DNA from: a virus
DNA length: 64,000 nt
Direction: 5' to 3' (one strand)
Virus record (IMG/VR): IMGVR_UViG_3300039355_000083
Shown here: positions 7,627-60,091 of the stretch, piece by piece
Layout: each line of letters begins with the position of its first letter
Position numbering within the stretch: position 1 is the stretch's first letter
Made by a program: the position numbers and the translations under genes
The notes under the pieces: generated by a model
The model's database searches: none
Seen by the model: the letters and a program-made list of their open reading frames with translations, nothing else
Told to the model about the DNA's origin: nothing

Positions 7627-7650
7627 TTATACATAATACAGGAGGAAAAA

Positions 7651-13064: not shown

Positions 13065-13556
13065 ATGAAATTTAAAGAAGCATTTGAAGAAATGAAATCT
13101 GGAATTCCAGTAAAACTTCCGTCATGGGCGGGTTATTGGTGGTGGGATGAAGAATCCCAGACAATCCTTATGTACACAAAAGATGGCGGCTGTCTGGATA
13201 TAAGAGAAACACAGAATGTGGAGTATACGCTTCAGAATATTCTTTCCGATGAGTGGGTTTATGCGGATAGTCGGAACTGCCCAATACTTGGTGGAGAAGC
13301 AACATTCTCATTCGGAGAAGCGATTAAGTACCTGAAAAGAGGATTTAAAGTGGCACGTAAAGGCTGGAATGGAAAGAAACAGTACATTCAGCTTGCCACT
13401 GGGATTTCTTATAAGACTGCCGATAATGAGATTGTAAATTGTGAGCATGACGCAATCGGAAATAAAGCCATCGCTTTTGTAACATCTGGCGTACAGATGG
13501 GATGGCTTGCTACCCAGTCGGATATGCTCGCAGAAGACTGGATGTTTGTTAAATAA
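13065..13556 (+). CDS. tandem DUF2829-like protein (Tad2-like anti-Thoeris sponge candidate)
   Basis: Two copies of the DUF2829-style 'FxEAxxxxKxGxxVxRxxW' motif ('MKFKEAFEEMKSGIPVKLPSW' and 'FSFGEAIKYLKRGFKVARKGWNGKK'). C-terminal 'GWLATQSDMLAEDWMFV' matches the family hallmark 'WLxSQxDLLAEDW' as I recall it. Confidence 0.55.
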   Translation: MKFKEAFEEMKSGIPVKLPSWAGYWWWDEESQTILMYTKDGGCLDIRETQNVEYTLQNILSDEWVYADSRNCPILGGEATFSFGEAIKYLKRGFKVARKGWNGKKQYIQLATGISYKTADNEIVNCEHDAIGNKAIAFVTSGVQMGWLATQSDMLAEDWMFVK

Positions 13557-20603: not shown

Positions 20604-21722
20604 ATGAGTAAAATTATTAGTACAGGTTCCACTTTTAGAATCTACGGAGATGATCTTGTAACACATAATCAACTTCCGGCACAAATTTATTCTATCAGAT
20701 GTTCACAGATGACAGGATTTTATTTAGAGAAACATGCTGATATTGAGATCAATGAAGATAAAATATACGGTGTGCACATGGAAAAAGTAAATAAAGTATT
20801 AAATGCTTTTCCAAATTTCAATAAAAATCTTGGCGTGATCTTATCTGGAGCCAAAGGAATTGGCAAATCTTTATTTTCTAAGATTCTTGCTGTAGAAGCT
20901 GTAAAAAAAGGATTGCCAGTAATTATTGTTGATACATATATCCCTGGAATTGCTAATTTTATTGAAGAAATTGAACAGGAAGTATTAGTAATGTTTGATG
21001 AGTTTGATAAAACATTTGGTAATATTAAAGCTGCTGATGGTATGGCTAATCCACAAACAGAGCTGCTTACATTATTTGATGGATTAGCTCAAGGGAAAAA
21101 GTTATATGTTATTACTTGTAATAATCTTAATACTCTGAGTGACTATTTGGTAAATAGACCCGGAAGATTTCATTATCATTTTAGATTTGATTATCCAACA
21201 GATTCTGAAATTACAGAATATATGAGAGACAAGTTACATAAAGAGTATTATGGAGAAATTAGTAAGGTAGTTGCATTTTCTAAAAGAGTCAGCTTGAATT
21301 ACGATTGTTTAAGAGCTATTGCATTTGAACTTAATACAGGCTTACAATTTCAAGAAGCAATTAAAGATATGAATATCCTTCATATAAATAATACTGTTTA
21401 TATAGCTACTTTGTATACTAAAGATGGTAAAAAAGATACAGAAGAAAAAACTCTTGACTTGTTTGATAAGACTTCTAATCATAGTTTATATTTTACAATA
21501 GATGGAAAATGGTTCTATACAAAATTTTCTGGTGTTGATGTAAGATATGATTTTGACAGACACATTGATTTTGTTGATGGAAAAGATGTTGAAATTATTC
21601 CGGATGAAGACTATGCGGATCTTACAAAAGAAGAAAAGAAAAAATACGAAAATATTAAAATTGATCGTATCGTTTTTGCAAGAAAAGAAGAAAAGGGACT
21701 TCATTATAATCTTTCTGTATAA
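20604..21722 (+). CDS. AAA+ ATPase
   Basis: Walker A 'GAKGIGKS', Walker B 'VLVMFDEFDK' and sensor/Arg-finger region 'NRPGRFHYHF'. Confidence 0.7.
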   Translation: MSKIISTGSTFRIYGDDLVTHNQLPAQIYSIRCSQMTGFYLEKHADIEINEDKIYGVHMEKVNKVLNAFPNFNKNLGVILSGAKGIGKSLFSKILAVEAVKKGLPVIIVDTYIPGIANFIEEIEQEVLVMFDEFDKTFGNIKAADGMANPQTELLTLFDGLAQGKKLYVITCNNLNTLSDYLVNRPGRFHYHFRFDYPTDSEITEYMRDKLHKEYYGEISKVVAFSKRVSLNYDCLRAIAFELNTGLQFQEAIKDMNILHINNTVYIATLYTKDGKKDTEEKTLDLFDKTSNHSLYFTIDGKWFYTKFSGVDVRYDFDRHIDFVDGKDVEIIPDEDYADLTKEEKKKYENIKIDRIVFARKEEKGLHYNLSV

Positions 21723-22570: not shown

Positions 22571-23350
22571 ATGGCTATCGTTGGTGCAATCTTAGGTGAT
22601 ATTGCAGGTTCACAATATGAATTTGGTAGACCAATTGATTTAGATTGGAAGAATTGTAAGTTATTTACTGATAGATGTTATTTTACAGATGATACTGTAA
22701 TGACACTTGCTGCTAAATTAGCAATTATTAATAATAAATCTTTCACAGAATCATATAGAGAATGGGGAAGAAAATATCCAAATGCAGGATATGGAAACAA
22801 TTTTGAAACGTGGTTAAGATACGATGATAAAACTGCATACGGAAGTTTTGGTAATGGATCTGCAATGAGATGTTCTTATATTGGAGAACATTTTAACACA
22901 GAGAAAGAAGTTATTGAATGGGCTACTAAGTCTGCTGAGTGTACGCATAATCATCCAGAAGGAATTAAAGGGGCGGTTGTAACAGCAATGTGTATTTATA
23001 TGGCAAGAACAGGAGTTACTAAAGAGGAAATCTATGAATATGCGAAGAAGAATTATCCAAAAGACGATTATCAATATAGTGTTGAATATAAAATTGAAGA
23101 CTATAGAAAGATATATCAGTGGAATGAAACTTGTCAAGGAAGTGTACCTGTTGCAATTAGATGTTTTTTAGAGAGTGGTGATTATGAAAGTTTCTTGCGA
23201 AACGTGTTCTCATTAAAGTGTGATATGGATACGTTATGTGCTATAGGTGGTGGAATTGCGGAAGAATTTTATCACGGAACTGGATTAAACAATGATTACT
23301 TACTTGGACATTACCTGAATAGACAATTGTACAGGATTGTAGAAATGTGA
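22571..23350 (+). CDS. ADP-ribosylglycohydrolase (ARH/DraG family)
   Basis: N-terminal 'IVGAILGDIAGSQYEF' plus the 'TDDT' motif and 'GNGSAMR', all typical of the ADP-ribosyl-(arginine/dinitrogenase reductase) hydrolase fold. Confidence 0.7.
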   Translation: MAIVGAILGDIAGSQYEFGRPIDLDWKNCKLFTDRCYFTDDTVMTLAAKLAIINNKSFTESYREWGRKYPNAGYGNNFETWLRYDDKTAYGSFGNGSAMRCSYIGEHFNTEKEVIEWATKSAECTHNHPEGIKGAVVTAMCIYMARTGVTKEEIYEYAKKNYPKDDYQYSVEYKIEDYRKIYQWNETCQGSVPVAIRCFLESGDYESFLRNVFSLKCDMDTLCAIGGGIAEEFYHGTGLNNDYLLGHYLNRQLYRIVEM

Positions 23351-24635: not shown

Positions 24636-25556
24636 ATGGAGCAGAAGAAATTTATGGATATTCAACGTCTGAAAGAAGGATATGCAGATGGATTTGTACC
24701 GGGTGACTTAATTGTTATCCAGGAAAAATTTGATGGATCTAATGCAGCAGCTAGATATGATGCAGAGACTGGCAAAATGGTAGCTTTTTCCAGAAGACAT
24801 ACGTTGAATCAGAACAATACATTAAATGGTTTTTATAATTATGTGCAGGAGTTAAATCCTGAAGATTATAAAGACGTTCCGGACTATGTAATATTTGGAG
24901 AATGGTCTGGAGCAAGAAATGCGATTATTTATTATCCAGAAAATACTAAGAAATGGTACGTATTTGATATTTATGATGTAAGGGAAGAAAAATATCTTCC
25001 TCAGTCAGAAGTAAAGGCATTTGCAGAAACGCATGGACTTACATATATCAATACATTTTATGTTGGACCGTTTGTCAGTTGGGAACATGTACAAAGTTTT
25101 ATGGATCATCCGGGATATGGAGAAATTCAAGAAGGTATTGTTATAAAGAACCAAACAAGATTAAACGATCCGAATAGCAGATTACCATTTGTAGTGAAAA
25201 TCGTTGGAGATAAATTTCATGAAGTCACAAAAATGAATCATGTTAAAAAGATTCAAGATCCACAAAAGTTGCAAGAACGAACAGAAGCACAGGAACTTGT
25301 AAAATCTGTCGTGACGCGGCGTAGAGTTGAAAAAGAGTTATATAAAATGCGTGATGAAGGAATCATCCCAACAGAGTGGTGTGAACAGGATATGAAAACT
25401 GTTGCAAGGAATCTTCCAAACAGAATTTATACAGATTGTGTAAAAGAAGAACCGGAAGTAGTTCAAGCAGCAGGACAATATTTTGGAAAATTCTGTTCCG
25501 TTATTTCGATGAATTACGCACGAGAGATTATTCTCGGTCCGACTGGAGCAAAGTAA
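24636..25556 (+). CDS. ATP-dependent RNA ligase (Rnl2-like nucleotidyltransferase)
   Basis: Motif I 'EKFDGSN' (KxDG lysine adenylation site) in a ~300-aa protein of Rnl2/DRB0094-like size. Confidence 0.6.
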   Translation: MEQKKFMDIQRLKEGYADGFVPGDLIVIQEKFDGSNAAARYDAETGKMVAFSRRHTLNQNNTLNGFYNYVQELNPEDYKDVPDYVIFGEWSGARNAIIYYPENTKKWYVFDIYDVREEKYLPQSEVKAFAETHGLTYINTFYVGPFVSWEHVQSFMDHPGYGEIQEGIVIKNQTRLNDPNSRLPFVVKIVGDKFHEVTKMNHVKKIQDPQKLQERTEAQELVKSVVTRRRVEKELYKMRDEGIIPTEWCEQDMKTVARNLPNRIYTDCVKEEPEVVQAAGQYFGKFCSVISMNYAREIILGPTGAK

Positions 25557-46641: not shown

Positions 46642-47394
46642 TTGGGGATCACGGACATGATTTGGGTAACTGGAGATACGCATGGGGATTGGATCCATAG
46701 AGTTAATATGGATTCTTTTCCCGAACAGCGTGAGATGTCGAAGGACGATTATGTGATAATTCTTGGAGATTTTGGGATATGGAGAGATTCACCGCAGCAA
46801 AGGTGGTACCTGAATTGGCTTGAAGAGAAACATTTCACAACACTCTTTATTGACGGAAATCATGAGAATTACGATATATTAGATTCTTATCCGGTAGAAG
46901 AATGGCATGGTGGTAAGGTGCATTTTATTAAACCATCGATAATTCATCTTATGAGAGGACAGGTATTTGATATAGACGGATTAAAATTCTTTACCTTTGG
47001 AGGAGCTTCAAGTCATGATATTTCAGATGGAGTATTAGAGATTGACGATCCAAGAGTAAAAGAATGGAGGGATGATCCGGATAAAATGTACCGAATCAAT
47101 CATATTTCATGGTGGGAACGAGAAATGCCAAATCAAGAAGAGATGGATGAGGGTATAAAGAATCTGGCAGAACATGATAATAAAGTAGATTTTATCCTGA
47201 CACATTGTACAGCTTCTTCTACAGCAGCATTATTATCACATGGATTATATAAGCCAGATAAGTTAACTAATTATTTTGAAGAAATAAGGTGCAATGTTGA
47301 TTATAAGCGTTGGTTGTGTGGACATTACCACGACAATAAAGCAATAACAATAAAAGATATAGTTCTATATGAACAGATTGTGAGGATCGCATAA
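46642..47394 (+). CDS. calcineurin-like metallophosphoesterase
   Basis: Motifs 'GDTHGD', 'GDFGIW' and 'GNHE' of the binuclear metallophosphatase fold. Confidence 0.7.
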   Translation: MGITDMIWVTGDTHGDWIHRVNMDSFPEQREMSKDDYVIILGDFGIWRDSPQQRWYLNWLEEKHFTTLFIDGNHENYDILDSYPVEEWHGGKVHFIKPSIIHLMRGQVFDIDGLKFFTFGGASSHDISDGVLEIDDPRVKEWRDDPDKMYRINHISWWEREMPNQEEMDEGIKNLAEHDNKVDFILTHCTASSTAALLSHGLYKPDKLTNYFEEIRCNVDYKRWLCGHYHDNKAITIKDIVLYEQIVRIA

Positions 47395-47856: not shown

Positions 47857-48213
47857 ATGCCGGAACGTAACAGAGGGTATTTGAGAAAGCAAAGACTACG
47901 AAATATTGAACGTAGAAAAAAATTAATAAGTCAACGAGAACTTATGTATCATGGATATAAAACTTTGAACGATCCTGATTTTAAAGAGGGGATGTTACAT
48001 AAAGGACACAGTGGACGACTTGGCATGGGTGGAACTGCAGTAAAAACTAATACTCGTAAAGGACATGCTTCATATCGACATAAAGGTGCTTATGGTCCAG
48101 CAGATAATTATTCAAGACATGATAAGCAGCAAGTTGAAGATGGAGCACAGCAAATTAAAGAATGGGAGAATAAAAATGAAAAAAGAGAAAAAGAAAGTTC
48201 TGATTGTGATTGA
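47857..48213 (+). CDS. hypothetical basic protein
   Basis: 118 aa, K/R/H/G-rich. Confidence 0.4.
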   Translation: MPERNRGYLRKQRLRNIERRKKLISQRELMYHGYKTLNDPDFKEGMLHKGHSGRLGMGGTAVKTNTRKGHASYRHKGAYGPADNYSRHDKQQVEDGAQQIKEWENKNEKREKESSDCD

Positions 48214-48727
48214 TGTACAGAATGATTTTGTAACCGGTTCACTTGGTACACCGGAAGCCCAAGCTATTATTCCGAATGTAAAAGAGAAATTTGATGAATA
48301 TAAGAATAATAAGAACTATGTAATTCTTACAAAGGATACTCATCATTCAGATTACGCAGATACTTCAGAGGGCAGAAAACTTCCTGAACATTGTATGTAT
48401 GGTACTAAAGGTTGGGAAATTGTTGATGAACTTGATTATAAAAATCTCGATAGTTTTATGGTATGTTGTAAATCTACTTTTGGATTTGATGACTGGAATT
48501 GGGAAGAAATATTTAATACTACAGATGGTTCTTTATTAGATATTGAAATTATTGGCATATGCACAGATATCTGTGTTATTACGAACGCTCTTTTGATTAA
48601 AACTTATTATCCAGAGGCAAAAATCACAGTTGATGCATCATGCTGCGCAGGATCAACACCGGAAAAGCATAAAGCGGCTCTTGATGTAATGGAAAGCTGC
48701 CAGATTAATGTAATCAATAGAAATTAA
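48176..48727 (+). CDS. pncA: nicotinamidase/pyrazinamidase (isochorismatase fold)
   Basis: 'KKVLIVIDVQNDFVTGSLG' is the canonical PncA N-terminus (catalytic Asp). The Cys-containing C-terminus 'GICTDICV' is present. Start moved to the ATG with RBS GGGAGAA. Confidence 0.75.
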   Translation: MKKEKKKVLIVIDVQNDFVTGSLGTPEAQAIIPNVKEKFDEYKNNKNYVILTKDTHHSDYADTSEGRKLPEHCMYGTKGWEIVDELDYKNLDSFMVCCKSTFGFDDWNWEEIFNTTDGSLLDIEIIGICTDICVITNALLIKTYYPEAKITVDASCCAGSTPEKHKAALDVMESCQINVINRN

Positions 48728-50288: not shown

Positions 50289-51392
50289 ATGAAAGATATA
50301 AAAATTGTCATCGGAGCAAACTTTGGTGACGAGGGCAAGGGCAAATTAACAGATTATTATACTAAAAATGCAGATAACTGTATCGTTGTGTGTTCAAATG
50401 GCGGTGCCCAGAGAGGACATACAGTATTAAAATCAGATGGAACCCGGCATGTCTTTCACCATTTCGGCTCTGGAACATTAAACGGAGCAGATACTTATTT
50501 ACCGGAGGATTTTATTTTAAATCCTCTGGTATTTAGGGAAGAATGGGAAGAGTTGAAGAAATTAGGATGGGAACCTTATGTGTACGTTCATGAACAATGT
50601 ATGATTACGAATCCTCTTGATATGATGGCAAATCAAATTATTGAGCGAAGTCGCGGTAATAATAAACACGGAAGTTGTGGAATGGGTATTTATAATACCA
50701 TTCAACGATATAAAAAGCATATTGATTCATATTCATTATCATGGACATATTATATGAACATGTTCAAAAACATGGGAATTACGTTATCTGAGCAGGAAGA
50801 AGAATTATTTCATCCCGTAAAAAATCCTGGGCTTCGAGACCATTACAATGAAGATCTTGATTTTATGATGTCTCATGTACATGTTGTAAATAATATTCAA
50901 TTACTACTTAATGGATACGACACCATTGTGTTTGAAAATGGTCAGGGGCTTCTTTTGGATCAAAATAATACTGAATATTACCCACATCTTACACCATCAA
51001 ATACTGGTATTAAGAATCCTGCCAGAATTATAAAGGCTATAAGATGGACTGATGAAATTAATATAGAAGCTTGTTATGTGACACGTACATATATGACGCG
51101 GCATGGAGCCGGTGCGTTCCCAACTGAATGTAATAAGGAAGAAATTAATCCGGACATCAAAGATTTAACCAATGTTCCAAATCCACATCAGGATACTTTG
51201 AGATATGGGAAGTTAAATGTTGAAGAACTATATGAAAGATGTCAAGCAGACATAATAAGTGCAGGTTTTCCGTGTCAAAAAACATTGGCTATAACTCATT
51301 TTAAAGAATATTGGGAGCCAGTTGCACTTATACGTGAAACGTTCAAGAAAAGTAACTGGGGATTTAGTATTTTTCATAAGGAAGAGAATTAA
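50289..51392 (+). CDS. short adenylosuccinate synthetase homolog (PurA-like; PurZ candidate)
   Basis: P-loop 'GANFGDEGKGK' and 'GGAQRGHT' match the PurA catalytic motifs. At 367 aa it is nearer archaeal-type PurA/PurZ than the ~430-aa bacterial PurA. Confidence 0.65.
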   Translation: MKDIKIVIGANFGDEGKGKLTDYYTKNADNCIVVCSNGGAQRGHTVLKSDGTRHVFHHFGSGTLNGADTYLPEDFILNPLVFREEWEELKKLGWEPYVYVHEQCMITNPLDMMANQIIERSRGNNKHGSCGMGIYNTIQRYKKHIDSYSLSWTYYMNMFKNMGITLSEQEEELFHPVKNPGLRDHYNEDLDFMMSHVHVVNNIQLLLNGYDTIVFENGQGLLLDQNNTEYYPHLTPSNTGIKNPARIIKAIRWTDEINIEACYVTRTYMTRHGAGAFPTECNKEEINPDIKDLTNVPNPHQDTLRYGKLNVEELYERCQADIISAGFPCQKTLAITHFKEYWEPVALIRETFKKSNWGFSIFHKEEN

Positions 51393-51667
51393 ATTGAATA
51401 AAGTAAAAGAACAAATTATGCAATTATCACAAAAACCAGAATGTATAGATTTAATGCTGCATGACGATTTAAAAGACGATTATTCTTTCAGAACAAATAT
51501 TCAAGATATAGCATCTTTACTGAGTGGGATATTAAATATTATGCAGCAAGCAAATCTTACTGATAAAGAGCTTGCCGAACTAGAACAATTATATAATGAA
51601 AGATATGAAACTAATAAGTCTGGATTGGGAACCAGTAACTGTATTACATGGTAGAAAGGTGATTTGA

Positions 51668-52471
51668 ATGATTAAATTAAACGACGTAGAAATCAAACTT
51701 GATAAATATCCGGATGGAACATTCTTATTTAAGGATATTCCTCCTATTGGCGGATGGCACAGAGATAATATTGAATGGTTCTTTGAATCAATGGAAGAGT
51801 TAACAGCAGTTGAATATATTACTAGATATTGTTGGGATCATAGAGTAGTGCCTAATTTATATATGCCTTATATCCCAGATGCACGTATGGACCGAGTTAA
51901 GCATAAGAACGAATTATTTACTTTAAAATATTTTGCTCAGACTATTAATTCATTACATTTTGGAAAAGTAGAAGTTTTAGATCCGCATTCTGATGTATCT
52001 GCCGCATTATTTAATAAAGTACATGTAGAATCCCCGAATCGAATGATTGAGGATGCTGTTAAGAAGATTGCGAGTAATAACCTTATGATGTTTTATCCGG
52101 ATGCGGGATCCATGAAGCGATATTCTTCAGCAGTACATCTTCCATATGCTTTCGGTATTAAGAATAGAGATTGGGAAACGGGAGAGATTAAAGGTTTAGA
52201 TTTATCAGGTGAAATTGATCAGTTACCAGGTAAAGATATCCTTATTGTAGATGATATTTGCAGCAGAGGCGGAACTTTTTATCACAGTGCTAAAAAACTG
52301 AAAGAGGCCGGTGTAGGTAAGATTTATCTTTATGTAACTCATTGTGAAAACACTATTTATGAAGGAGAACTTCTGAAAAATAATGGATTAATTGAGAAGA
52401 TTTATACGACAGATACGATTTTGACAAATCTGGAAAGTCCTAAGATTGAATTGGTTGAGAGGTTTAGATAA
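51668..52471 (+). CDS. ribose-phosphate pyrophosphokinase-like PRTase (Prs/Adps-like)
   Basis: PRPP-binding motif 'ILIVDDICSRGGT'. The 267-aa length is that of the short Prs-like enzymes that accompany phage NadV genes. Confidence 0.65.
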   Translation: MIKLNDVEIKLDKYPDGTFLFKDIPPIGGWHRDNIEWFFESMEELTAVEYITRYCWDHRVVPNLYMPYIPDARMDRVKHKNELFTLKYFAQTINSLHFGKVEVLDPHSDVSAALFNKVHVESPNRMIEDAVKKIASNNLMMFYPDAGSMKRYSSAVHLPYAFGIKNRDWETGEIKGLDLSGEIDQLPGKDILIVDDICSRGGTFYHSAKKLKEAGVGKIYLYVTHCENTIYEGELLKNNGLIEKIYTTDTILTNLESPKIELVERFR

Positions 52472-52519
52472 GGAGGAATATTATGAAACAAATTATTATT
52501 CCTTTAGGGTGGTGAGAAA

Positions 52520-52990
52520 ATGAAAGAAATTTTAGGAAATAATCTTGAACAATTCTTTTTTGTATTATTAGATTTATTAGATTACCAAAAAGAATGTGGA
52601 GCGATATGCACATACAAGAGTAATAGATATGAAGTTTGGTTAATGTATGATGAAACATTTAATAGGATCTCAGATATGTCAGAAGAAGAATTTGTTAAAT
52701 TCGCAGGTGAAGATGCTTGGTGGAGAAGTAGCAATGGTAGTGTATTATATTCACTTGATAAAGGAGAAATAACAATTAATCATAAGAAAATGATTGGATG
52801 GATTAGAAAACCTGGGGATGAAGAAATATCAACAGATATTGAATATTCATCATTAACAGAATATTTATGTGAATTTATTGGGGCTTCTACACCTCATAAT
52901 GTTGTTGCTTGTGCAATGGATTTGGGTAAATTTAATCATTTGACAATGGGTAGATTGTTTAAAAAATATGAACCAGTGGAGGATGAATGA
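52520..52990 (+). CDS. hypothetical protein
   Basis: 156 aa ORF. Confidence 0.45.
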   Translation: MKEILGNNLEQFFFVLLDLLDYQKECGAICTYKSNRYEVWLMYDETFNRISDMSEEEFVKFAGEDAWWRSSNGSVLYSLDKGEITINHKKMIGWIRKPGDEEISTDIEYSSLTEYLCEFIGASTPHNVVACAMDLGKFNHLTMGRLFKKYEPVEDE

Positions 52991-53285
52991 AGAAATGATG
53001 TTTACAGTTTGTAATGTTCCAAAGTTTTTAGAGGAACAGATGAATAAAATGAAAGACACTATTACGAGTGATATGAATGAAGATAATCTTAAAGGTTATG
53101 AGTATGCAGTTGAAACTATGTTAAGTATTATTAGACAGACAATTCATGCTGCCGAGATGGATGATGAAATTCTTGTGCATAGCGATAAGATTGCTGATGA
53201 GAACGATATTGAAGAGTTTGATTTACATGATTTGTTAGGACTTTATGGTTGTAGAGTTGTGGCACAGAAAGAATTTGAAGAATAA
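52968..53285 (+). CDS. hypothetical acidic protein
   Basis: 105 aa ORF. Confidence 0.4.
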   Translation: MNQWRMNEEMMFTVCNVPKFLEEQMNKMKDTITSDMNEDNLKGYEYAVETMLSIIRQTIHAAEMDDEILVHSDKIADENDIEEFDLHDLLGLYGCRVVAQKEFEE

Positions 53286-53363
53286 TACATGCAAAAAAGC
53301 AATCTTTTTTCGGAGAATCAATGTGAAATATGAAAGAATGCAAGAGGAATGGAGAAATAGTAT

Positions 53364-53705
53364 ATGAAAGCACAGATTTGCGAAACGTGTGTACATAAAC
53401 ATGATAGATGTTATTGCAGTCCGAATAGTACATGTGATAAGTATAAGAAAATTCAAATGGTAGAAAAGAAATCATGGGAAGAATTTAAGAATAACGGATT
53501 TCTCTGGTGGATTAATATGATTTTACATACATTCGGATGGGCGATTTGTGTAGATATCGAAGAAGACGGATCAGTTTCAAATGCTTATCCTGCCAGAGTA
53601 AAATTCAGAGGATTTGCAGAGAAGAATAATACAGATGGTTATATTAAAGTCAGTCAATATTTGAAAGACAATGTGGACGAGCTTGTAAAAGAAGCGAATG
53701 ATTAA
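53364..53705 (+). CDS. Cys-rich hypothetical protein
   Basis: 'CETCVHKHDRCYCSPNSTCDKY' N-terminus. Confidence 0.4.
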   Translation: MKAQICETCVHKHDRCYCSPNSTCDKYKKIQMVEKKSWEEFKNNGFLWWINMILHTFGWAICVDIEEDGSVSNAYPARVKFRGFAEKNNTDGYIKVSQYLKDNVDELVKEAND

Positions 53706-53714
53706 GGAGGAGTT

Positions 53715-55190
53715 ATGAATAATACTTTAGCAATTTTACTTTCAGATACATATAAACAAATTCATAATAAAATCTATCCAAAAGGATTAACAAAACTTGT
53801 TTCCTACTGGACTCCACGACGATCAATGCTTAAGAATCAGAACAAAATGGTTTTCTTTGGTTTACAAGCATTTATTGAAGAATATCTGGTTGACTATTTC
53901 AATGAAAATTTTTTCGAGCTAACAGCAGTAGAAGTTGAGCATACATATAAATACAGTATGGATATACAGTTAGGAAATAGTTATGACCTAGAGCCTATTA
54001 TGAAACTTTATAAATTAGGTTATCTTCCAATTCAGATACGTGCTATCCCGGAGGGAACATTAGTACCAATGGGCATTCCATGCATCGAGATTACAAACAC
54101 ACATCCAGATTTTGCTTGGGTAGTACAGTGGATAGAATGTATCCTGCAGGTTGAACTCTGGAAACCATGTGCTCATGCAACAATTAGTCATATGTATAGA
54201 GAACTTGCAAACAACTACTATAAAATGACTTGTGATGACTTTTTAAGACCTGAAATGGCATGCTCAGACTTTGGTATGAGAGGAATGTCTTGCATGGAAG
54301 AGGCAGTAAGATGTTCATCTGCTTGGTTATTATCATTTGATAAGACAAGTACAATTCCGGCCATTGATTATATAGATACGTATTATGATGCTTGCTGTTG
54401 GACTAAAAGAATCGGAATTGGTGCTGTATCAACAGAACATTCAGTTATGGCTTCAAATTATGCAGTAGACGGTGATGAAATCACATTTGTAAAAAGACTA
54501 CTTACGGAACTATATCCTAATGCATCTTTCAGTATGGTATCTGACACTTATGATTACTGGAATATGATTGATAATATTCTTCCGGCTTGTAAAAAAGAAA
54601 TCATGCAGCATAATGGTAAACTTCTGGTTCGTCCAGATTCCGGAGATATGGTAGAAATTGCTGTAGAGACAATTGAAAAGCTTTGGAATACATTCGGCGG
54701 AACAGTAAATAGCAAGGGATATAAAGTGCTTGATCCGCACATTGGAATTATTTATGGGGACGGATGTACTCTTAATAATGTAAAGCAGGTATGGGAAAAA
54801 CTGAAGAAAAAAGGATTTGCTGCAAACAATATCGTATTCGGAGTCGGAGCATTTTGCTTCTCAGCAGTTATAGAACCCGATGGACATATGGTTGTTGTAA
54901 CCAGAGATATGTTTGGTATTGCTATGAAAGCCACCTATGGAATTGTCAATGGCGAGCCAATTATGATCTATAAAGATCCAAAAACCGATACGAGTCATTT
55001 GAAAAAATCTCATAAAGGGTGTTGTTGTATATATTACGATGACAATGGAGAATTACAGTGTGAAGACGGGTATAATGATGTATTTCGTGACGGAGCGTTA
55101 AGTACCGTATTTGTAGATGGGAAAGCTTGCAATAAAGAAACATTTGAAGACATTAGAGAAAGATTAAACGGAGGAAACAAAGATGAGTAA
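53715..55190 (+). CDS. nadV: nicotinamide phosphoribosyltransferase (NAMPT/NadV-like type II PRTase)
   Basis: N-terminal 'ILLSDTYKQIHNKIYPKGLTKLVSYWTPR' parallels NAMPT 'ATDSYK...YP...VYSYFECR'. 491 aa. Confidence 0.7.
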   Translation: MNNTLAILLSDTYKQIHNKIYPKGLTKLVSYWTPRRSMLKNQNKMVFFGLQAFIEEYLVDYFNENFFELTAVEVEHTYKYSMDIQLGNSYDLEPIMKLYKLGYLPIQIRAIPEGTLVPMGIPCIEITNTHPDFAWVVQWIECILQVELWKPCAHATISHMYRELANNYYKMTCDDFLRPEMACSDFGMRGMSCMEEAVRCSSAWLLSFDKTSTIPAIDYIDTYYDACCWTKRIGIGAVSTEHSVMASNYAVDGDEITFVKRLLTELYPNASFSMVSDTYDYWNMIDNILPACKKEIMQHNGKLLVRPDSGDMVEIAVETIEKLWNTFGGTVNSKGYKVLDPHIGIIYGDGCTLNNVKQVWEKLKKKGFAANNIVFGVGAFCFSAVIEPDGHMVVVTRDMFGIAMKATYGIVNGEPIMIYKDPKTDTSHLKKSHKGCCCIYYDDNGELQCEDGYNDVFRDGALSTVFVDGKACNKETFEDIRERLNGGNKDE

Positions 55191-55656
55191 AATTACAGAT
55201 TATTTATTAAAAGATGATGTGATTGTAGTAATGGATGTAGATGGAGTACTTGCTCCGTATGAGTTCTCTGAATTAAGTCATAGTATGACTGATAATGAAT
55301 GGGATAGACTTGTAGCTTCCAGTGAGAATCCGTATAAAGATGTGCGTCCGATTAAATTAATGCAAGAGTTCATTCAAAAGAAAGGTATTGACAAAGTATA
55401 TGCTTGTTCAAAGAGTCCTTTCAGTGAGATCCCCGGCAAAAGAGCTTTTATCAAAGATAATTACGGCCTTCCGGATGATAATATCTATTTTACTTTAGAA
55501 AAGACAGAAAAACTTACTGTGCTTCAGACGCTGCAACAAAAGCTTGGGCTTAAGCCGTCTCAGATTGCAATTGTAGAGGATACAGTAAAAACTTTGGATT
55601 ATATTCGTGCACATAGTGATTTTGTAACTGTACACGTTTCATCATTTATGGAGTAA
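55183..55656 (+). CDS. HAD-superfamily 5'(3')-deoxyribonucleotidase-like phosphatase
   Basis: Motif I 'VVMDVDGVLAPYEF' (DxDGVL) resembles the NT5C family. Confidence 0.5.
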   Translation: MSKITDYLLKDDVIVVMDVDGVLAPYEFSELSHSMTDNEWDRLVASSENPYKDVRPIKLMQEFIQKKGIDKVYACSKSPFSEIPGKRAFIKDNYGLPDDNIYFTLEKTEKLTVLQTLQQKLGLKPSQIAIVEDTVKTLDYIRAHSDFVTVHVSSFME

Positions 55657-55671
55657 AGAGGAGTAAAGAGA

Positions 55672-56622
55672 ATGAATTTACAAAGTATTAGTAGATATAT
55701 AAGTCTTATATTAAGACATAAGCCTGAAGTTATTGGTATTACTATAGATGAACATGGTTGGGCGAATGTAGAAGAACTGATTCAGGGTATCGCTAAAAAC
55801 AATCCCGGATTCAACAAAGAATTTTTAGAGGAAATTGTACGGACTGACAATAAGCAGCGATATTCTTTCAATGATGACAAGACATTGATCAGAGCGAATC
55901 AGGGACATTCAATTCCGGTAGATGTAGAACTGGAAGAGAAAGAGCCACCTAAAATTCTTTATCATGGAACTGGCGAGAAATATATAGCGTCTATTGATCA
56001 GAATGGACTGATTCCTAAAAGTCGTTTATATGTTCATTTGTCAAAAGATGTTGAAACCGCCAAAGCTGTCGGCAAGAGACATGGTAAAGAAGTTGTTTAT
56101 TCTATCAATAGTGAACAGATGTACAAAGATGGATACAAATTTTACTTATCTAAAAATGGAGTTTGGCTGACTAAAAGGGTTCCAGTGAAATATTTAATGA
56201 AGGAAGGTATAAAAATGAGTAGTACATATTTTACGGATTCAGTTTCAGATCTTTGTCAGGGGATTGTTGATAAAGCAGATACTTATGAAAAACGAATTAA
56301 ATACTTAGAAGAAGAAAACAAGAAGCTCAAAGATGAGCATTATAAAGATTCTGAAATGCAGAGAATGGAAGCAGAACTGAAAAAAGCGAAAGAGGATCTG
56401 TATAGAGGATTTCCAATTTCAGAAAAAGAACAAGAGAAAATCAGAGAGTGGGAATTAAAACATGATGCTGAGAAACATGGTTTGAAAACTATGGAACAGA
56501 GAGCAATGGGACATGGTTGCATAGGCGGCTCTCTTACATGGTGCTTTACACCAACATCAATCGGAACTATTGGAGAAGTGATTTGCTCCTGTGGCGAGAA
56601 GTTTACATTTCAGGATTTATAG
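55672..56622 (+). CDS. kptA: RNA 2'-phosphotransferase Tpt1/KptA with C-terminal coiled-coil/Cys extension
   Basis: Tpt1 signature blocks '[27 protein letters not shown]', 'IRANQGHSI' and 'LYHGT'. Confidence 0.75.
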
Positions 56623-56632
56623 GAAAAGATTT

Positions 56633-57133
56633 ATGATTAAAATTATTGAAGGTAATATCGTTAATGCAAAGACAGATTTTATAATTCATCAGGTTAACTG
56701 CCAAGGAGAAATGAACACTGGAGTCGCTAAAGCATTAAGAGATTATGATGAAGGCATTTATAAACACTATAGAAAGTTTTGTGAGTTTTGTAAGTTCGAG
56801 TCGGAAGAACTACTCGGAACGTGTGATGCATATTTATTGAAAGATAGAGGTCAAATTGTATTGTCTTTATTCGCACAAAATAAATATGGATATGATGGTA
56901 AACAGTATACAGATCTTGAAGCTTTTAGATATGGTTTAAGATATATTTCGCAACATTTTGGAGTATGGCGTGAAAAAAATGGACTAGAAGGAAAAGATCT
57001 TTGTAGAACTTCAGTAGCACTTCCGTATAAGATTGGTTGTGGAAGAGGGGGAGCAGACTGGGAAATGGTTTATAAAATCATTGAAGAGGAACTTAAAGAT
57101 TATGATGTGGAATTATGGAGGCTGGATGAATGA
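56633..57133 (+). CDS. macro domain protein (Poa1p-like, ADP-ribose/ADP-ribose-1''-phosphate processing)
   Basis: 'IIEGNIVNAKTDFIIHQVNCQGEMNTGVAKAL' and 'IGCGRGGADWEMV' match the macro-domain ligand-binding loops. Start moved to the ATG at 56633. Confidence 0.7.
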   Translation: MIKIIEGNIVNAKTDFIIHQVNCQGEMNTGVAKALRDYDEGIYKHYRKFCEFCKFESEELLGTCDAYLLKDRGQIVLSLFAQNKYGYDGKQYTDLEAFRYGLRYISQHFGVWREKNGLEGKDLCRTSVALPYKIGCGRGGADWEMVYKIIEEELKDYDVELWRLDE

Positions 57134-57555
57134 GCGAGGCGATGAATATTATTATAGCCGGTTCACGAGATTTTGATGATTATCGTTTGCTTAAGAAAAC
57201 TGTGTCAGATTATATCGAAGAGAATCAAGTTAATAACACTCAGCAAATTAGAGTTATCAGTGGTGGTGCAAAAGGTGCAGATAGGCTTGGTGAATGTTAT
57301 GCGTTTGATAATGGTTACTCCGTTATAAGATTTCAAGCGTTATGGGGAGTTTATGGAAAGTCTGCTGGCCCTAGACGTAATAATGAAATGGCAAAATTTG
57401 CATCAGAATCAGGCTCTGGTACGTTGATCGCATTTTGGGATGGTGAATCGCGAGGTACAAAAAATATGATTGATACTGCAAGAAGATATGGATTACATGT
57501 AATTGTAGTTGAATATGAAAAAGATTCGGAGGAATTAAATGAACAGAAAAGATAA
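57130..57555 (+). CDS. SLOG-superfamily (DprA/LOG-like, DUF2493-type) nucleotide-binding protein
   Basis: 'IIIAGSRDF...ISGGAKGADRLGE...IAFWDGESRGTKNMI' fits the SLOG Rossmann-like signature common in phages. Confidence 0.55.
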   Translation: MSEAMNIIIAGSRDFDDYRLLKKTVSDYIEENQVNNTQQIRVISGGAKGADRLGECYAFDNGYSVIRFQALWGVYGKSAGPRRNNEMAKFASESGSGTLIAFWDGESRGTKNMIDTARRYGLHVIVVEYEKDSEELNEQKR

Positions 57556-57823
57556 TACATTAGAAGGAATAGGTGCGTTTACAGTAATCATCCTTGCGAT
57601 TTTCACTCTTGTTATTAGTCCGGCATTATCATTTATGTTTGCTTACATAGGTGGATGTATACTGAAATTTTTTGTAGGGGACGCATTGGTTAATGGATTA
57701 AATATCATATTTAATACAACTAGATTTACGAAACCAATGATCCCTGTTATTTGTGCAACAATTGCAACAATTGGTAAATATTTTAAAACAACAGTCGATA
57801 TGTCAAGACATAAAGGACAGTAG
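57539..57823 (+). CDS. small membrane protein
   Basis: 94 aa with 2-3 predicted TM helices. Confidence 0.4.
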   Translation: MNRKDNTLEGIGAFTVIILAIFTLVISPALSFMFAYIGGCILKFFVGDALVNGLNIIFNTTRFTKPMIPVICATIATIGKYFKTTVDMSRHKGQ

Positions 57824-57877
57824 GAGTTACATATAAATTCTTATGAAAGTAAGAAAGGAACTGCAGGAGGAATCAAA

Positions 57878-58237
57878 ATGAAAAAGGTAACTACTATATT
57901 AATTCTTCTGCTTATCAGTGCATTTATGTTGACTGGTTGCGCTAAATGTATTGATAAGAAAGAAGAAAGTGTAAAAGTCAAAATTGTTAATGAATACTAT
58001 AAACCGAAAGAAACTCGTTTCATAGGTATAATTAATCATGTTCCACAATTTCGGACAGATTATGCCGAGTATGAAATTACGGTAGACTATAACGGAGTGG
58101 AATATTCACTTAGTGATGAAAGTACATATCGTAAATATCATGGAAGAATAGGACAAACAGTGTCTGCCGTATTGATTACAAAGACATATGATAATGGCAA
58201 TGTTAAACAATATATTAATTGTTTAGGAGGATTATAA
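57878..58237 (+). CDS. lipoprotein
   Basis: Signal peptide with lipobox 'LTGCAK'. Confidence 0.5.
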   Translation: MKKVTTILILLLISAFMLTGCAKCIDKKEESVKVKIVNEYYKPKETRFIGIINHVPQFRTDYAEYEITVDYNGVEYSLSDESTYRKYHGRIGQTVSAVLITKTYDNGNVKQYINCLGGL

Positions 58238-58238
58238 G

Positions 58239-59000
58239 ATGAAATATTACGATGGATATTTTAAAGAACTCAAGAATGAAATTGTACAGTGGATCAGAGA
58301 CTGGTTCGATCAGAATGGTCCCGGCTGCAATGCAATTGTAGGAATCTCTGGTGGAAAAGATTCTTCCGTAGTAGCAGCGCTTTGTGTAGAAGCTCTTGGA
58401 AAAGATCGTGTAATTGGTGTACTAATGCCACAGGGTCAGCAGAAAGATATTTATGCTGCGTACAAGCTTTGTGAATTTCTTGATATTAAATCATACGAAA
58501 TCAACATTAGCGACACAGTTCGAAGTGTATTGTCAAGACTCGAAAGCTCAGGAATCGAGATCAGCGAACAGACAAAAATAAATCTTCCGGCACGTATTAG
58601 AATGTCTACATTATATGCTGTCTCTCAGTCTTGTAATGGAAGAGTAGCAAATACATGTAATCTTTCAGAATCATATGTCGGTTATGAAACCAGGTATGGT
58701 GATTCGGCAGGTGATTTTAGTCCGTTAGGAAAATTAACTGTATATGAAGTTAAAAAACTTGGATATGAATTATTGCTTCCTACAGAACTTATTGAAAAGA
58801 TTCCAATTGATGGATTATGTGGAAAGACAGATGAGGACAATTTAGGATTCCCATATGAAGTTCTGGACAGATATCTTCGTACAGGAGAGATTGACGATCT
58901 GGCTGTAAAAGCTAAGATTGATTTAATGCATAAACGATGTCTCTTCAAATCAGAGAAGATTCCGGTATTTAATCCTGAATTAAAAGTGGAGGCAGAATAA
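58239..59000 (+). CDS. nadE: NH3-dependent NAD+ synthetase
   Basis: PP-loop 'GISGGKDSSVVAAL' and NadE-like C-terminus ('LGFPYEVLDRYL'). 253 aa. Confidence 0.65.
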   Translation: MKYYDGYFKELKNEIVQWIRDWFDQNGPGCNAIVGISGGKDSSVVAALCVEALGKDRVIGVLMPQGQQKDIYAAYKLCEFLDIKSYEINISDTVRSVLSRLESSGIEISEQTKINLPARIRMSTLYAVSQSCNGRVANTCNLSESYVGYETRYGDSAGDFSPLGKLTVYEVKKLGYELLLPTELIEKIPIDGLCGKTDEDNLGFPYEVLDRYLRTGEIDDLAVKAKIDLMHKRCLFKSEKIPVFNPELKVEAE

Positions 59001-59260
59001 TGGAGAACATATTTATATCATTCTTGTTAATCGAAATTCTTTTCACAACAATTTTAATAATTAATTGTGCAATTGATGAATTATTACCAATAAAAGAATA
59101 TAAAAAGTGGTCCCAAAATAAAAATTGGTTCGGTAAGATATATATATTTCTTACAGTTATATTTACTATTCCTGCAGCAATTATTATATATATCGCTTTT
59201 TCCATTGTGTTCTTAGTAACATTTATTTATACACTTGGAATTAAAGAGGAGAAGAAATAA
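59000..59260 (+). CDS. small membrane protein
   Basis: 86 aa with 2 TM helices. Confidence 0.4.
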   Translation: MENIFISFLLIEILFTTILIINCAIDELLPIKEYKKWSQNKNWFGKIYIFLTVIFTIPAAIIIYIAFSIVFLVTFIYTLGIKEEKK

Positions 59261-59261
59261 C

Positions 59262-59810
59262 ATGAAACCATATGATGTTGGGCTTGTTTGTGGGCGTTTT
59301 CAAACGTTCCACAAAGGCCATGAAAAACTTATTGATACTGGGTTATTGCTTTGTGATCGGATGCTTATTCTTGTTGGCAGTGCACAAGAATGTGGGACAA
59401 AACGTAATCCTTTGAATGTTAATACTAGAATCAAGATGATACGTGAAGTATATGGTGATGATCCAAACATTATGATTTATGCATTATCAGACCTTACTGA
59501 TGAAAATGATATCACACCAGATTGGGGTAGATATCTTCTTCAAAATGCAGATCGATATATTTATAAAAATCCAGATGTAATGATTTATGGTAATGATGAT
59601 AGCCGGAGTGGATGGTTCGACAAGAAAGATTTAAAGAACACAACCGAATTAATCATTAATCGTGAAGAATTACCCATCTCTGGGACCATGTTGAGAGCAC
59701 TTATGATACAGGATAAACGGCGAGAATGGATGACTTTTGTTAATCCTAAGTTACATAAAATGTATGATGAAATTCGTAGTGAACTTATGGAAAGCATAAA
59801 GGAGAATTAA
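59262..59810 (+). CDS. nicotinamide/nicotinate mononucleotide adenylyltransferase (NadM/NadR-type NMNAT)
   Basis: (H/T)xGH motif 'GRFQTFHKGH' and C-terminal 'ISGTMLRAL' (ISxTxxR). Start at the ATG with RBS AAGAGGAG. Confidence 0.7.
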   Translation: MKPYDVGLVCGRFQTFHKGHEKLIDTGLLLCDRMLILVGSAQECGTKRNPLNVNTRIKMIREVYGDDPNIMIYALSDLTDENDITPDWGRYLLQNADRYIYKNPDVMIYGNDDSRSGWFDKKDLKNTTELIINREELPISGTMLRALMIQDKRREWMTFVNPKLHKMYDEIRSELMESIKEN

Positions 59811-59848
59811 AATTATGATAAAAACATTAAAGGAATTATATTAAATTA

Positions 59849-60091
59849 ATGGAGGAAGCAGATATGACACCAGGAAGGCCGCAACAATTGCCTTACGTAT
59901 CACCACCAGATAAAAAAACGTCTCAGGAAAAATCCGGTAGTAACATTGTTGTTGAATGGATGTCTGAAATAAAAGAGCTTGCGAAAAATGGATATGAGAT
60001 ATCTAGCGTAAATGCTTGTATGAAGGATGAAAAATTTCAAAGAATTATTGGTATCTGTGATGCAGTAATTATGGTATTGAAGGAGAATTAG
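59849..60091 (+). CDS. hypothetical protein
   Basis: 80 aa ORF. Confidence 0.4.
   Translation: MEEADMTPGRPQQLPYVSPPDKKTSQEKSGSNIVVEWMSEIKELAKNGYEISSVNACMKDEKFQRIIGICDAVIMVLKEN

Follow-up and report, generated by a model that had tools for sequence, protein, structure and literature searches.

A probable NARP1-AP island with an accessory Tpt1 gene in viral DNA from a metagenome

Gene content of the locus

The window, by which we mean the whole 64,000-nucleotide stretch of viral DNA that was analysed (IMG/VR record IMGVR_UViG_3300039355_000083), has ORFs for Tpt1, a macro-domain protein and a SLOG protein that run in the same direction on the + strand and are closely spaced. A preliminary description of this DNA had placed them next to an NAD+ gene island lying upstream; the island is indeed there, and it resumes downstream as well. 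The features are as follows.

51668 to 52471, + strand: Adps-like gene, by homology to the NARP1 ADP-ribose pyrophosphokinase; labelled ribose-phosphate pyrophosphokinase elsewhere
53715 to 55190, + strand: Namat-like gene (NARP1 nicotinamide ADP-ribose transferase); best solved match SPbetaL1 Namat
55183 to 55656, + strand: accessory gene for a small HAD-like protein; DVDGV motif, TIGR01509 match below cut-off
55672 to 56212, + strand: Tpt1/KptA RNA 2'-phosphotransferase gene (PF01885, NF002014, 7KW8)
56204 to 56205, + strand: single extra A that puts Tpt1 and the gene after it into one frame (comparison with relatives)
56215 to 56622, + strand: 135-aa gene, named 'TptC'; a separate protein in relatives
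56633 to 57133, + strand: macro-domain protein, Adpp-like, predicted ADPR-1''-phosphate phosphatase (fold, profile, homology)
57130 to 57555, + strand: SLOG protein (YAcAr/YpsA-like), accessory (PF10686)
57539 to 57823, + strand: 94-aa hydrophobic protein of the island (ORF list; kept in the long island type)
57878 to 58237, + strand: 119-aa protein, candidate lipoprotein (ORF list; hydrophobic N terminus, then Cys)
58239 to 59000, + strand: NAD synthetase NadE (PF02540, 5.5e-53)
59262 to 59810, + strand: nicotinamide-nucleotide adenylyltransferase (NMNAT)-like protein (PF01467, 3e-11)
24636 to 25556: RNA ligase (PF09414)

NadE lies 3' of the macro gene in almost every related locus, and the NMNAT-like protein also matches NF002243 and TIGR01527 at about 1e-16, both under cut-off. 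The 94-aa protein, which is conserved in the long island type and has no match in Pfam, is probably a membrane protein, judging from its hydrophobic sequence; a hydrophobic N terminus with a Cys after it suggests that the 119-aa protein is possibly a lipoprotein. Many relatives have a 182-aa gene and a NADAR gene directly upstream of the 119-aa gene, and the window has neither. A nicotinamidase-like gene is found near the island, and a metallophosphoesterase is encoded in the same window as Tpt1. Megablast of positions 51600 to 59900 against 50,697 phage records gave no match, so there is no annotated close relative in that set. When the macro protein was used to query 185,579 species genomes it found a single contig, from a metagenome bin.

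Tpt1 and its apparent fusion

The Tpt1/KptA domain is complete at residues 1-177 of ORF 55672 to 56622. It matches PF01885 (5.5e-48, 163.8 bits; cut-off 26), NF002014 (259.2 bits; cut-off 239) and PDB entry 7KW8 (1.1e-47), with which residues 4-175 align without gaps, and the identity first proposed for this protein stands. The essential residues of the Runella enzyme are R16, H17, R64 and R119 (PMC6097658). Alignment, the check that had been proposed for the catalytic R/H residues, finds all four counterparts in the window protein (R15, H16, R63 and R118), and the Arg-His-Arg-Arg set is invariant in 33 distinct phage alleles. Tpt1 looks catalytically intact by these criteria and most probably acts on RNA, taking off 2'-phosphates (or other phosphate monoesters) and spending NAD+. 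That it might run a reversed RES-type reaction, making NAD+ from ADPR-1''-phosphate, was considered and rejected: rough thermodynamic reasoning makes this unfavourable, and Namat already gives an activated route.

The ORF as called encodes 316 aa. Is this one bifunctional protein or two genes? Comparison with relatives indicates two genes, merged by one additional A at 56204/56205. Positions 56197 to 56217 of the window read ATGAAGGAAGGTATAAAAATG, whereas the counterpart in relatives is ATGAAGGAGGTATAAAAATG, in which Tpt1 stops after 179 aa and the ribosome-binding site (RBS) and ATG of a 135-aa gene follow. The difference is GGAAGG in the window versus GGAGG in every relative, and the Tpt1 stop codon (TAA, 56210 to 56212) is out of frame in the window. 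A 179-aa Tpt1 occurs in 21 of 21 distinct close relatives, several of them otherwise 100% identical in protein. A true fusion, in which Tpt1 is tethered to a coiled-coil/Cys-His domain, would agree with the frame being open from 55672 to 56622, but it hinges on the single extra A where all 21 relatives have two genes; moreover, the 135-aa gene retains its own ATG and purine-rich RBS, and its product stands alone in hundreds of clusters. We regard such a protein as unlikely in this phage, and as a conserved architecture it is ruled out by the relatives' sequences. Judged from these alignments, the fused ORF is the outcome of a one-base insertion, and for annotation the 316-aa 'Tpt1' is best handled as two genes. 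The Tpt1 and macro ORFs, originally described as adjacent, are thus co-directional and tightly packed, but the 135-aa gene lies between them.

The 135-aa protein is modelled (pLDDT 85) with two parts, a long coiled coil and a small beta domain, and W79, H83, E86, H88, C124 and C126 are invariant in an alignment of the family. The homologues are stand-alone proteins of 129-136 aa. No fold match was found in PDB or BFVD, and a Pfam search gave no match. That the gene might be obligatorily paired with the macro gene was considered and rejected, since its homologues occur in unrelated genomic contexts. A contig of a Ruminococcus sp. encodes a homologue with 52% identity, which is only a hint as to the host.

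The macro-domain protein and its NARP1 partners

The true start of the macro gene is ATG 56633, not GTG 56591, giving a 166-aa product. This has no Pfam match at E<=0.01. Foldseek with the AlphaFold model (pLDDT 90.3) returned Poa1p (6LFR; 1.3e-10, TM 0.73) as top match, followed by DarG 5M3E and TARG1, which bears out the earlier assignment to a Poa1p-like class. H19, the equivalent of Poa1p H23, is invariant, and the site of the DarG/TARG1 catalytic Lys is occupied by Gln82, invariant in 46 family members.

The NARP1-AP system of Vibrio phage Gary consists of Adps, Namat and the macro phosphatase Adpp; it turns ADPR-1''-phosphate, the product of RES-type NAD+ phosphorylase defence, into ADPR and then NAD+, and so counters that defence (Osterman et al., bioRxiv, January 2026, 10.64898/2026.01.28.702374). 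The window protein aligns over its full length with the validated Gary Adpp (BLASTP 2e-9, 25% identity; collinear but weak), at 29% identity in a MAFFT alignment, and Gary Adpp also has Gln at the catalytic Lys site. It aligns with further NARP1-associated macro proteins from Table S1 of Osterman et al., and its tblastn matches include PAK_P1-like Pseudomonas phages named in that table. It also matches phrog_335 'phosphatase' at 3.7e-37. Osterman et al. counted Adpp as associated when at most two genes from the Adps-Namat pair. The window's macro gene is beyond this radius, separated from the Namat-like gene upstream by three ORFs and 1.4 kb; homologues in distant phages (39-62% identity) sit directly after Namat.

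The Adps-like protein is 41% identical over 258 aa (E 4e-54) to the experimentally validated Adps of SPbetaL1 and 39% identical (1e-28) to that of Gary; it scores no more than 52 bits against genuine Prs structures, and 90.6 bits against TIGR01251, short of the 113 cut-off. Likewise, the Namat-like protein scores 395 bits against SPbetaL1 Namat (9W5X/9W5W) versus about 206 bits against human NAMPT, and has 30% identity to KVP40 Nampt. The Namat selectivity motif is present and retains the position-3 aromatic residue, with position 7 ambiguous, but is split by a 10-aa insertion (GAFCFS[AVIEPDGHMV]VVTRD); similar insertions of 9-14 aa are found in the motifs of Namat-like proteins from related gut phages. 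The partners of the macro gene accordingly appear to be Adps and Namat, and not Prs and Nampt, with the qualification that the Namat substrate is not certain because the insertion falls inside the motif said to give ADPR-PP specificity.

The best-supported reading of the macro protein is that it is an ADPR-1''-phosphate phosphatase feeding ADP-ribose to NAD+ recycling. By homology to the characterised Gary enzyme it would remove the 1''-phosphate of ADPR-1''-phosphate; Adps would then pyrophosphorylate the resulting ADP-ribose, and Namat would couple the Adps product to nicotinamide, giving NAD+. For this phage we infer the three steps from homology and conserved gene order. A different role, that of a DarG-like antidote which frees phage DNA of the ADP-ribose added by host DarT, is suggested by the best sequence-level matches, which are DarG macro domains (5M31 at 7e-6, a DarG profile at 4e-10, NCBIfam DarG at 1.3e-12, PADLOC DarG at 3.6e-15), and phage DarG-like anti-defence proteins are already known (PMC13309987). 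PADLOC gave, besides this N-terminal DarG match, a marginal PsyrA match and no others. The full-length DarG models are, however, matched only at about positions 1-50 (of 338 in the NCBIfam model), the window protein being a bare 166-aa macro domain, and the conserved neighbours are NAD+ synthesis genes. The catalytic K80 of Thermus aquaticus DarG aligns with the invariant Gln. With the catalytic Lys missing, an anti-DarT role was set aside as very unlikely.

The SLOG and HAD-like genes

The macro and SLOG genes share 4 nt at their junction. The protein matches PF10686 (YAcAr; 2e-13, 50.4 bits, cut-off 28.2), as expected from the first assignment, and phrog_289 (7e-30); a PDB sequence search gave no match. 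The gene upstream of Tpt1 had been called a HAD nucleotidase. Its product does carry a DVDGV motif, but the match to TIGR01509 (2e-6, 28 bits) is under the 29.4 cut-off, making this a weak call, and Pfam and PDB sequence searches gave no match.

Which genes travel together?

The island survey comprised 56 distinct variants. In every locus examined the macro gene accompanies Adps-like and Namat-like genes, and it is still beside them in the 29 variants (of 56) that have no Tpt1. Phages whose macro proteins are only 39-46% identical also have the Adps-like and Namat-like genes and lack Tpt1 and SLOG. The order Adps > Namat > macro > NadE is kept, again with neither Tpt1 nor SLOG, at macro identities of 39-62%, and a second lineage shows it in 23 of 24 loci. 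Tpt1, on the other hand, is present in 27 of the 56 variants, the HAD-like gene in 38 and SLOG in 19; SLOG is cleanly missing from close relatives, and eight of the 27 Tpt1-bearing variants are without it. Tpt1, SLOG, the HAD-like gene, the 135-aa gene and (in relatives) NADAR are accessory genes, gained and lost between closely related phages.

Outside this lineage, the nearest Tpt1 alleles (66-80% identity) were examined in 47 phage loci, and no macro gene lies within 10 kb in any of these; nor is there one within 6 kb of Tpt1 in Clostridioides difficile, Erwinia and Dickeya phages. The preliminary description had Tpt1, macro and SLOG as a candidate cassette; the survey contradicts this, and the trio is neither the conserved unit nor self-contained. 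A looser link between Tpt1 and NARP1-AP may nevertheless exist. All 26 'long-type' island variants retain Tpt1, in two alleles that are just 76% identical, which argues for a role of Tpt1 in this lineage beyond that of a chance passenger. Further, Tpt1 and NARP1-AP occur in one genome, 9-14 kb apart, in the second gut-phage lineage, and the distance between Tpt1 and a macro gene is 3.4 kb in Bacillus phage C30-3 and some 7 kb in Klebsiella jumbo phages. All in all, the region from Tpt1 to SLOG probably forms the accessory central part of an extended NARP1-AP island in a large phage of human-gut metagenomes.

What might Tpt1 do in the island?

Of the cassette roles first envisaged, the recycling of ADP-ribose into the NAD+ pathway survives for the macro gene, as a predicted ADPR-1''-phosphate phosphatase like the published phage Adpp; it does not extend to Tpt1, macro and SLOG as a unit. 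Another possibility is a dedicated pathway like that of yeast (Tpt1, cyclic phosphodiesterase, Poa1), made up of Tpt1 and the macro protein with SLOG as a third component, which would clear RNA 2'-phosphates after repair of nuclease-cut tRNA and dispose of the ADP-ribose by-product. The chemistry is coherent and was proposed earlier for viruses generally (PMC9503650). Consistent with it are the fixation of two divergent Tpt1 alleles in 26 of 26 long-type islands, the PF09414 RNA ligase (24636 to 25556) and metallophosphoesterase in the same window, the macro genes near Tpt1 in phage C30-3 and the Klebsiella jumbo phages, and the co-occurrence of Tpt1 and NARP1-AP in genomes of the second gut-phage lineage. 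Yet the RNA ligase is 30 kb distant, and no 2H or other cyclic phosphodiesterase was found among the approximately 40 window ORFs scanned with Pfam, which included part of the small unannotated ones. The macro gene, moreover, stays by Adps and Namat in the 29 variants without Tpt1, the 47 outside loci have no macro gene within 10 kb, Tpt1 has unrelated neighbours in other phages, and SLOG is missing from eight of 27 Tpt1-bearing variants. We therefore consider a dedicated pathway doubtful.

The two proteins could also be a writer and an eraser, Tpt1 adding an ADP-ribose cap to phage RNA or DNA at 5'-phosphate ends and the macro protein taking it off again. TARG1-class macro domains can reverse the ADP-ribosylation of 5'-phosphate ends. 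Bacterial and mammalian Tpt1 enzymes ADP-ribosylate such ends (PMC12678800, PMC10415124). The macro gene is tied to NARP1, however, and not to Tpt1, its product lacks the TARG1 catalytic Lys, and the sequence gives no preference for capping over 2'-phosphate removal, and we consider this arrangement very unlikely.

It is a literature rule that NARP1 operons recruit enzymes turning NAD+ breakdown products into ADPR, and Tpt1 by-products could, speculatively, feed Adpp. If Tpt1 were functionally integrated with NARP1-AP, it would use NAD+ to strip 2'-phosphates or terminal phosphates inflicted on RNA by a defence; the HAD-like protein, the 135-aa Cys/His protein or SLOG would open the ADP-ribose cyclic phosphate; and Adpp, Adps and Namat would convert the by-products back to NAD+. 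We rate this integration as rather unlikely. Were it true, RNA repair would be NAD+-cost-neutral during an NAD+-depleting defence, and each accessory gene of the island would point to an as yet undescribed product of host defence, for which Adpp and RyDEP are the precedents.

The pathway to which the macro gene probably belongs is already published, and the statement that the Tpt1-macro pair had not been described in phages is to that extent out of date. Extra genes of NARP1 have twice led to discoveries, Adpp to the RES-type NAD+ phosphorolysis defence and RyDEP to the enzymatic destruction of Thoeris signals. One mosaic slot in the present island holds Tpt1, SLOG, the HAD-like gene, NADAR (in relatives) and the abundant 135-aa protein, and these genes are a handful of concrete candidates for counter-defence enzymes. 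A search that reaches only two genes, as was used for Adpp, would overlook islands of this kind.

Comparison with known systems

The island resembles NARP1-AP in that all three protein families recur in a single co-directional cluster, with a macro protein of the Poa1p class that aligns with Adpp over its full length, and related gut phages have the macro gene directly after Namat. It differs in gene order (Adps...Namat...macro, versus Adps-Adpp-Namat in Gary); in the HAD-like, Tpt1 and 135-aa genes lying between Namat and macro; in the mere 25-29% identity of its macro protein to Gary Adpp; in the insertion in the Namat selectivity motif; and in the addition of SLOG, NadE, the NMNAT-like gene and the nearby nicotinamidase-like gene.

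The yeast pathway for the tRNA-splicing by-product consists of Tpt1, Cpd1 (a 2H cyclic phosphodiesterase) and Poa1p. As there, the window has a Tpt1 with the full set of essential residues and a Poa1p-class macro protein, encoded 430 bp apart; unlike there, no cyclic phosphodiesterase was found among the ORFs scanned and no Trl1-type ligase was identified, and Tpt1 and macro genes are unlinked in most other phages with Tpt1. The macro subclass is the same as that of the DarG antitoxin and human TARG1 by fold and best sequence matches, but Gln replaces the catalytic lysine of both, and DarG's C-terminal DarT-binding domain and DarT context are absent.

Phage KptA and frequent Macro-SLOG-NADAR neighbourhoods beside NAD+ salvage genes were reported by Iyer, Burroughs, Anantharaman and Aravind in 2022 (PMC9503650). 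That survey predates NARP1 and takes NadV to be a plain NAMPT; in its available portion Tpt1 inside an Adps-Namat cluster is not described. Finally, RyDEP in the NARP1 loci of mycobacteriophages converts 2'cADPR and 3'cADPR to ADPR for recycling (bioRxiv 10.64898/2026.05.28.727677). Its protein family is unrelated and its substrate different, but it sets a precedent: a NARP1 operon can take up an accessory enzyme that turns an NAD+-derived product into ADPR.

Layout of the NAD+ island

The window has a G+C content of about 33% and a positive GC skew across its whole length, and nearly all of its long ORFs are carried on the + strand. From 51.6 to 59.9 kb the ORFs stand close together, overlaps of a few bases being common, and form an island of NAD+-related genes:

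51668-52471, +, Prs-like (Adps-like) gene
between the Prs-like and NAMPT-like genes, three small ORFs without assignment
53715-55190, +, NAMPT-like (Namat-like) gene
55183-55656, +, HAD-like gene (weak call)
55672-56622, +, 316-aa ORF with Tpt1 domain
56633-57133, +, macro protein, 166 aa
57130-57555, +, SLOG protein
between the SLOG and possible lipoprotein genes, 94-aa hydrophobic protein
between the 94-aa protein gene and NadE, possible lipoprotein
58239-59000, +, NadE
59262-59810, +, NMNAT-like gene

An adenylosuccinate-synthetase-like gene (50289-51392; PF00709, 2.4e-38) lies directly upstream of the Adps-like gene and keeps this position in related contigs. The SLOG protein named in the preliminary description is upheld by a PF10686 match above threshold. 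The HAD assignment is weak, with a DVDGV motif and a sub-threshold TIGR01509 match.

A probable Adpp-like macro protein with Adps-like and Namat-like partners

NARP1 (Adps plus Namat) rebuilds NAD+ out of ADP-ribose (ADPR) and nicotinamide. In 15% of NARP1 phages a Poa1p-like macro protein, Adpp, is added (NARP1-AP); purified Adpp of Vibrio phage Gary converts ADPR-1''-phosphate to ADPR, and the three-gene Gary operon defeats the RES-domain defence aRES, which phosphorolyses NAD+ (Osterman et al., bioRxiv, January 2026, 10.64898/2026.01.28.702374). Against the validated Adps of Bacillus phage SPbetaL1 the Prs-like protein shows a full-length identity of 41% (4e-54), and against Gary Adps one of 39%; genuine Prs structures score at most 52 bits. 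The best solved relatives of the NAMPT-like protein are the SPbetaL1 Namat structures 9W5X and 9W5W (395 bits; human NAMPT, about 206 bits). A caveat to the Adpp/NARP1-AP reading is the insertion of 9-14 aa in the Namat selectivity motif of all these gut-phage proteins.

The macro protein has no Pfam match at E ≤ 0.01. Its AlphaFold model (46 homologues in the input; pLDDT 90.3) has Poa1p as best structural match (6LFR, 1.3e-10, TM 0.73), in agreement with the Poa1p type proposed earlier; further top matches are the DarG macro domain and TARG1. Is it then a DarG rather than an Adpp? DarG is indeed its best match at the sequence level, but the position of the DarG/TARG1 catalytic lysine is an invariant glutamine in the family of this protein, as it is in Gary Adpp, and the DarG C-terminal domain is absent. 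On these two grounds we consider the macro protein to be quite probably Adpp-like. Its alignment with Gary Adpp runs from end to end (2e-9), and the PAK_P1-like phages of Table S1 of Osterman et al. are among those with homologs; a caveat to the Adpp reading is that in the window the macro gene stands three ORFs from Namat.

Neighbors of the macro gene

The NAMPT-to-NadE interval was compared in 56 distinct variants from IMG/VR and ENA contigs, a biased sample in that loci were baited with Tpt1, the macro protein, or the 135-aa protein encoded after Tpt1. They fall into three types.

Island types, by macro identity to the window
Long (at least 86%): HAD, Tpt1, 135-aa gene, macro, with or without SLOG, TM, with or without 182-aa gene plus NADAR, lipoprotein, NadE
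Short (65-67%): with or without HAD, 135-aa gene, macro, NadE
Distant (39-46%): NAMPT-like gene, directly macro, then NadE

The 135-aa gene is present in 43 of the 56 variants and the HAD-like gene in 38; NADAR occurs in 19. Tpt1 (27/56) and SLOG (19/56) are each so often missing that Tpt1, macro and SLOG do not make up the conserved unit envisaged for them. In another gut-phage lineage (24 loci, L201-L224) a nicotinamidase-like gene and NadE flank Prs-like, NAMPT-like and macro genes in a compact five-gene operon, and macro comes next after the NAMPT-like gene in 23 loci. These distributions mark Prs-like, NAMPT-like and macro genes (plus NadE) as the stable unit.

At nearly every locus examined NadE comes after the macro gene, and the window has a nicotinamidase-like gene of the isochorismatase family at 48065-48727. 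Taken with the extra residues inside the Namat selectivity motif, the flanking nicotinamidase-like and NadE genes suggest a deamidated route in which nicotinate and ADPR-PP would give NaAD, which NadE would convert to NAD+; no link of NARP1 with NadE or PncA was found in the literature searched. Many close relatives have the 182-aa gene and NADAR between the 94-aa protein and lipoprotein genes (7601-8579 in the related locus L120), and in some the NMNAT-like gene is followed by a PF21825 'Sequestin' gene (L120 10504-10758); the window has none of these.

Tpt1 and the 316-aa ORF

Tpt1 scores far over the curated thresholds and its alignment to the Runella enzyme (7KW8, 1.1e-47) is ungapped, so that its identification is secure. 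The essential Runella residues R16, H17, R64 and R119 (PMC6097658) correspond to R15, H16, R63 and R118 in the window, and these are invariant across the 33 distinct phage Tpt1 alleles collected.

The 316-aa ORF is, judged by its relatives, two genes. IMG/VR relatives match the whole ORF, residues 1-177 alone, or residues 177-316 alone. Their junction reads ...ATGAAGGAGGTATAAAAATGAGT; Tpt1 stops after 179 aa (KYLMKEV*), and the ATG of the next gene is preceded by an AGGAGG ribosome-binding site. At the same junction the window reads ATGAAGGAAGGTATAAAAATGAGT, with one extra A at 56204/56205 that carries the frame past the Tpt1 stop. The 179-aa form is found in each of the 21 distinct close relatives, some of them on contigs otherwise 100% identical at the protein level; the extra A is either a true mutation or an assembly error. 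The 135-aa protein stands alone in hundreds of sequence clusters (129-136 aa), is predicted to have a long helix and a small beta domain, and has invariant W79, H83, E86, H88, C124 and C126; Pfam profile and fold searches gave no match.

Tpt1 in other phages

The proposed linkage of Tpt1 to macro genes is mostly absent elsewhere. Within 6 kb of Tpt1, phiCD211-type C. difficile phages, Erwinia Ea35-70 and Dickeya AD1 have no macro homolog. We compared 80 Tpt1 loci from IMG/VR, each with flanks of 10 kb: those at 93% identity or above, 33 in number, are all this island, and the 47 at 66-80% have no macro homolog in those flanks, their immediate neighbors being unrelated (e.g. GmrSD_N-like proteins, an integrase). 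Looser links do occur. A 76% Tpt1 allele lies 9-14 kb upstream of the operon in the compact-operon lineage, and this 76% allele occupies the same slot within the island in an abundant ENA lineage. In Bacillus phage C30-3 the macro, Tpt1 and NADAR genes all fall inside 7 kb, in Klebsiella jumbo phages a stretch of 17 kb contains NadR and PnuC, Tpt1 and a macro gene, and NADAR is 1.4 kb from Tpt1 in two IMG/VR loci. From gene neighborhoods, then, Tpt1 appears as a recurrent member of NAD+/ADP-ribose settings with no fixed tie to the macro gene.

Proposed mechanism

Homology and gene order lead us to infer the following steps. A host defence would turn NAD+ into nicotinamide plus ADPR or ADPR-1''-phosphate; the macro protein would dephosphorylate the latter, Adps would make ADPR-pyrophosphate, and Namat would re-form NAD+. 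Tpt1 would take phosphate monoesters off RNA, spending NAD+, and its cyclic phosphate, if opened, would be an Adpp substrate, so that the island could recycle this expense. Such recycling via Adpp is speculative and rather unlikely, since no cyclic phosphodiesterase was found among the window ORFs scanned. Possible RNA-repair partners for Tpt1 are an RNA ligase 30 kb away (24636-25556; PF09414, 2e-26) and a calcineurin-like metallophosphoesterase 9 kb away (46642-47394); a 47% identical RNA ligase also occurs in IMG/VR locus L192, where it is 6 kb upstream of Tpt1.

Other genes of the phage

A Tad2-like domain protein (13065-13556; PF11195, 1.1e-23), from a family that sequesters Thoeris signals, would be a second NAD+-related counter-defence gene in this phage. 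An ADP-ribosylglycohydrolase (22571-23350; PF03747, 1.3e-28), distant from the island, is a further putative ADP-ribose-processing enzyme. Translations also point to a putative NAD+-dependent DNA ligase, apparently split, with its N-terminal part in one ORF (7651-8802) and its C-terminal part in another (9335-10222), between which a 186-aa ORF (8790-9350) resembles an HNH-type homing endonuclease. A 372-aa AAA/STAND-like NTPase is encoded at 20604-21722 (PF00004, 3e-9; nSTAND3, 1.6e-6).

Relation to known systems

What the island mainly offers is a set of accessory genes that are candidates for counter-defence, and a correction of annotation. The association of macro with NARP1 is already published. 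A 2022 survey (PMC9503650) catalogs viral Macro-SLOG-NADAR neighborhoods, proposed there to process ADPR derivatives, and includes phage KptA and the idea of its joint work with 2H and Macro domains. Since the NARP1 literature searched mentions neither Tpt1 nor KptA, the stacking of Tpt1, SLOG, HAD-like, NADAR and the Cys/His (135-aa) protein between Namat and Adpp is a new form of a known system.
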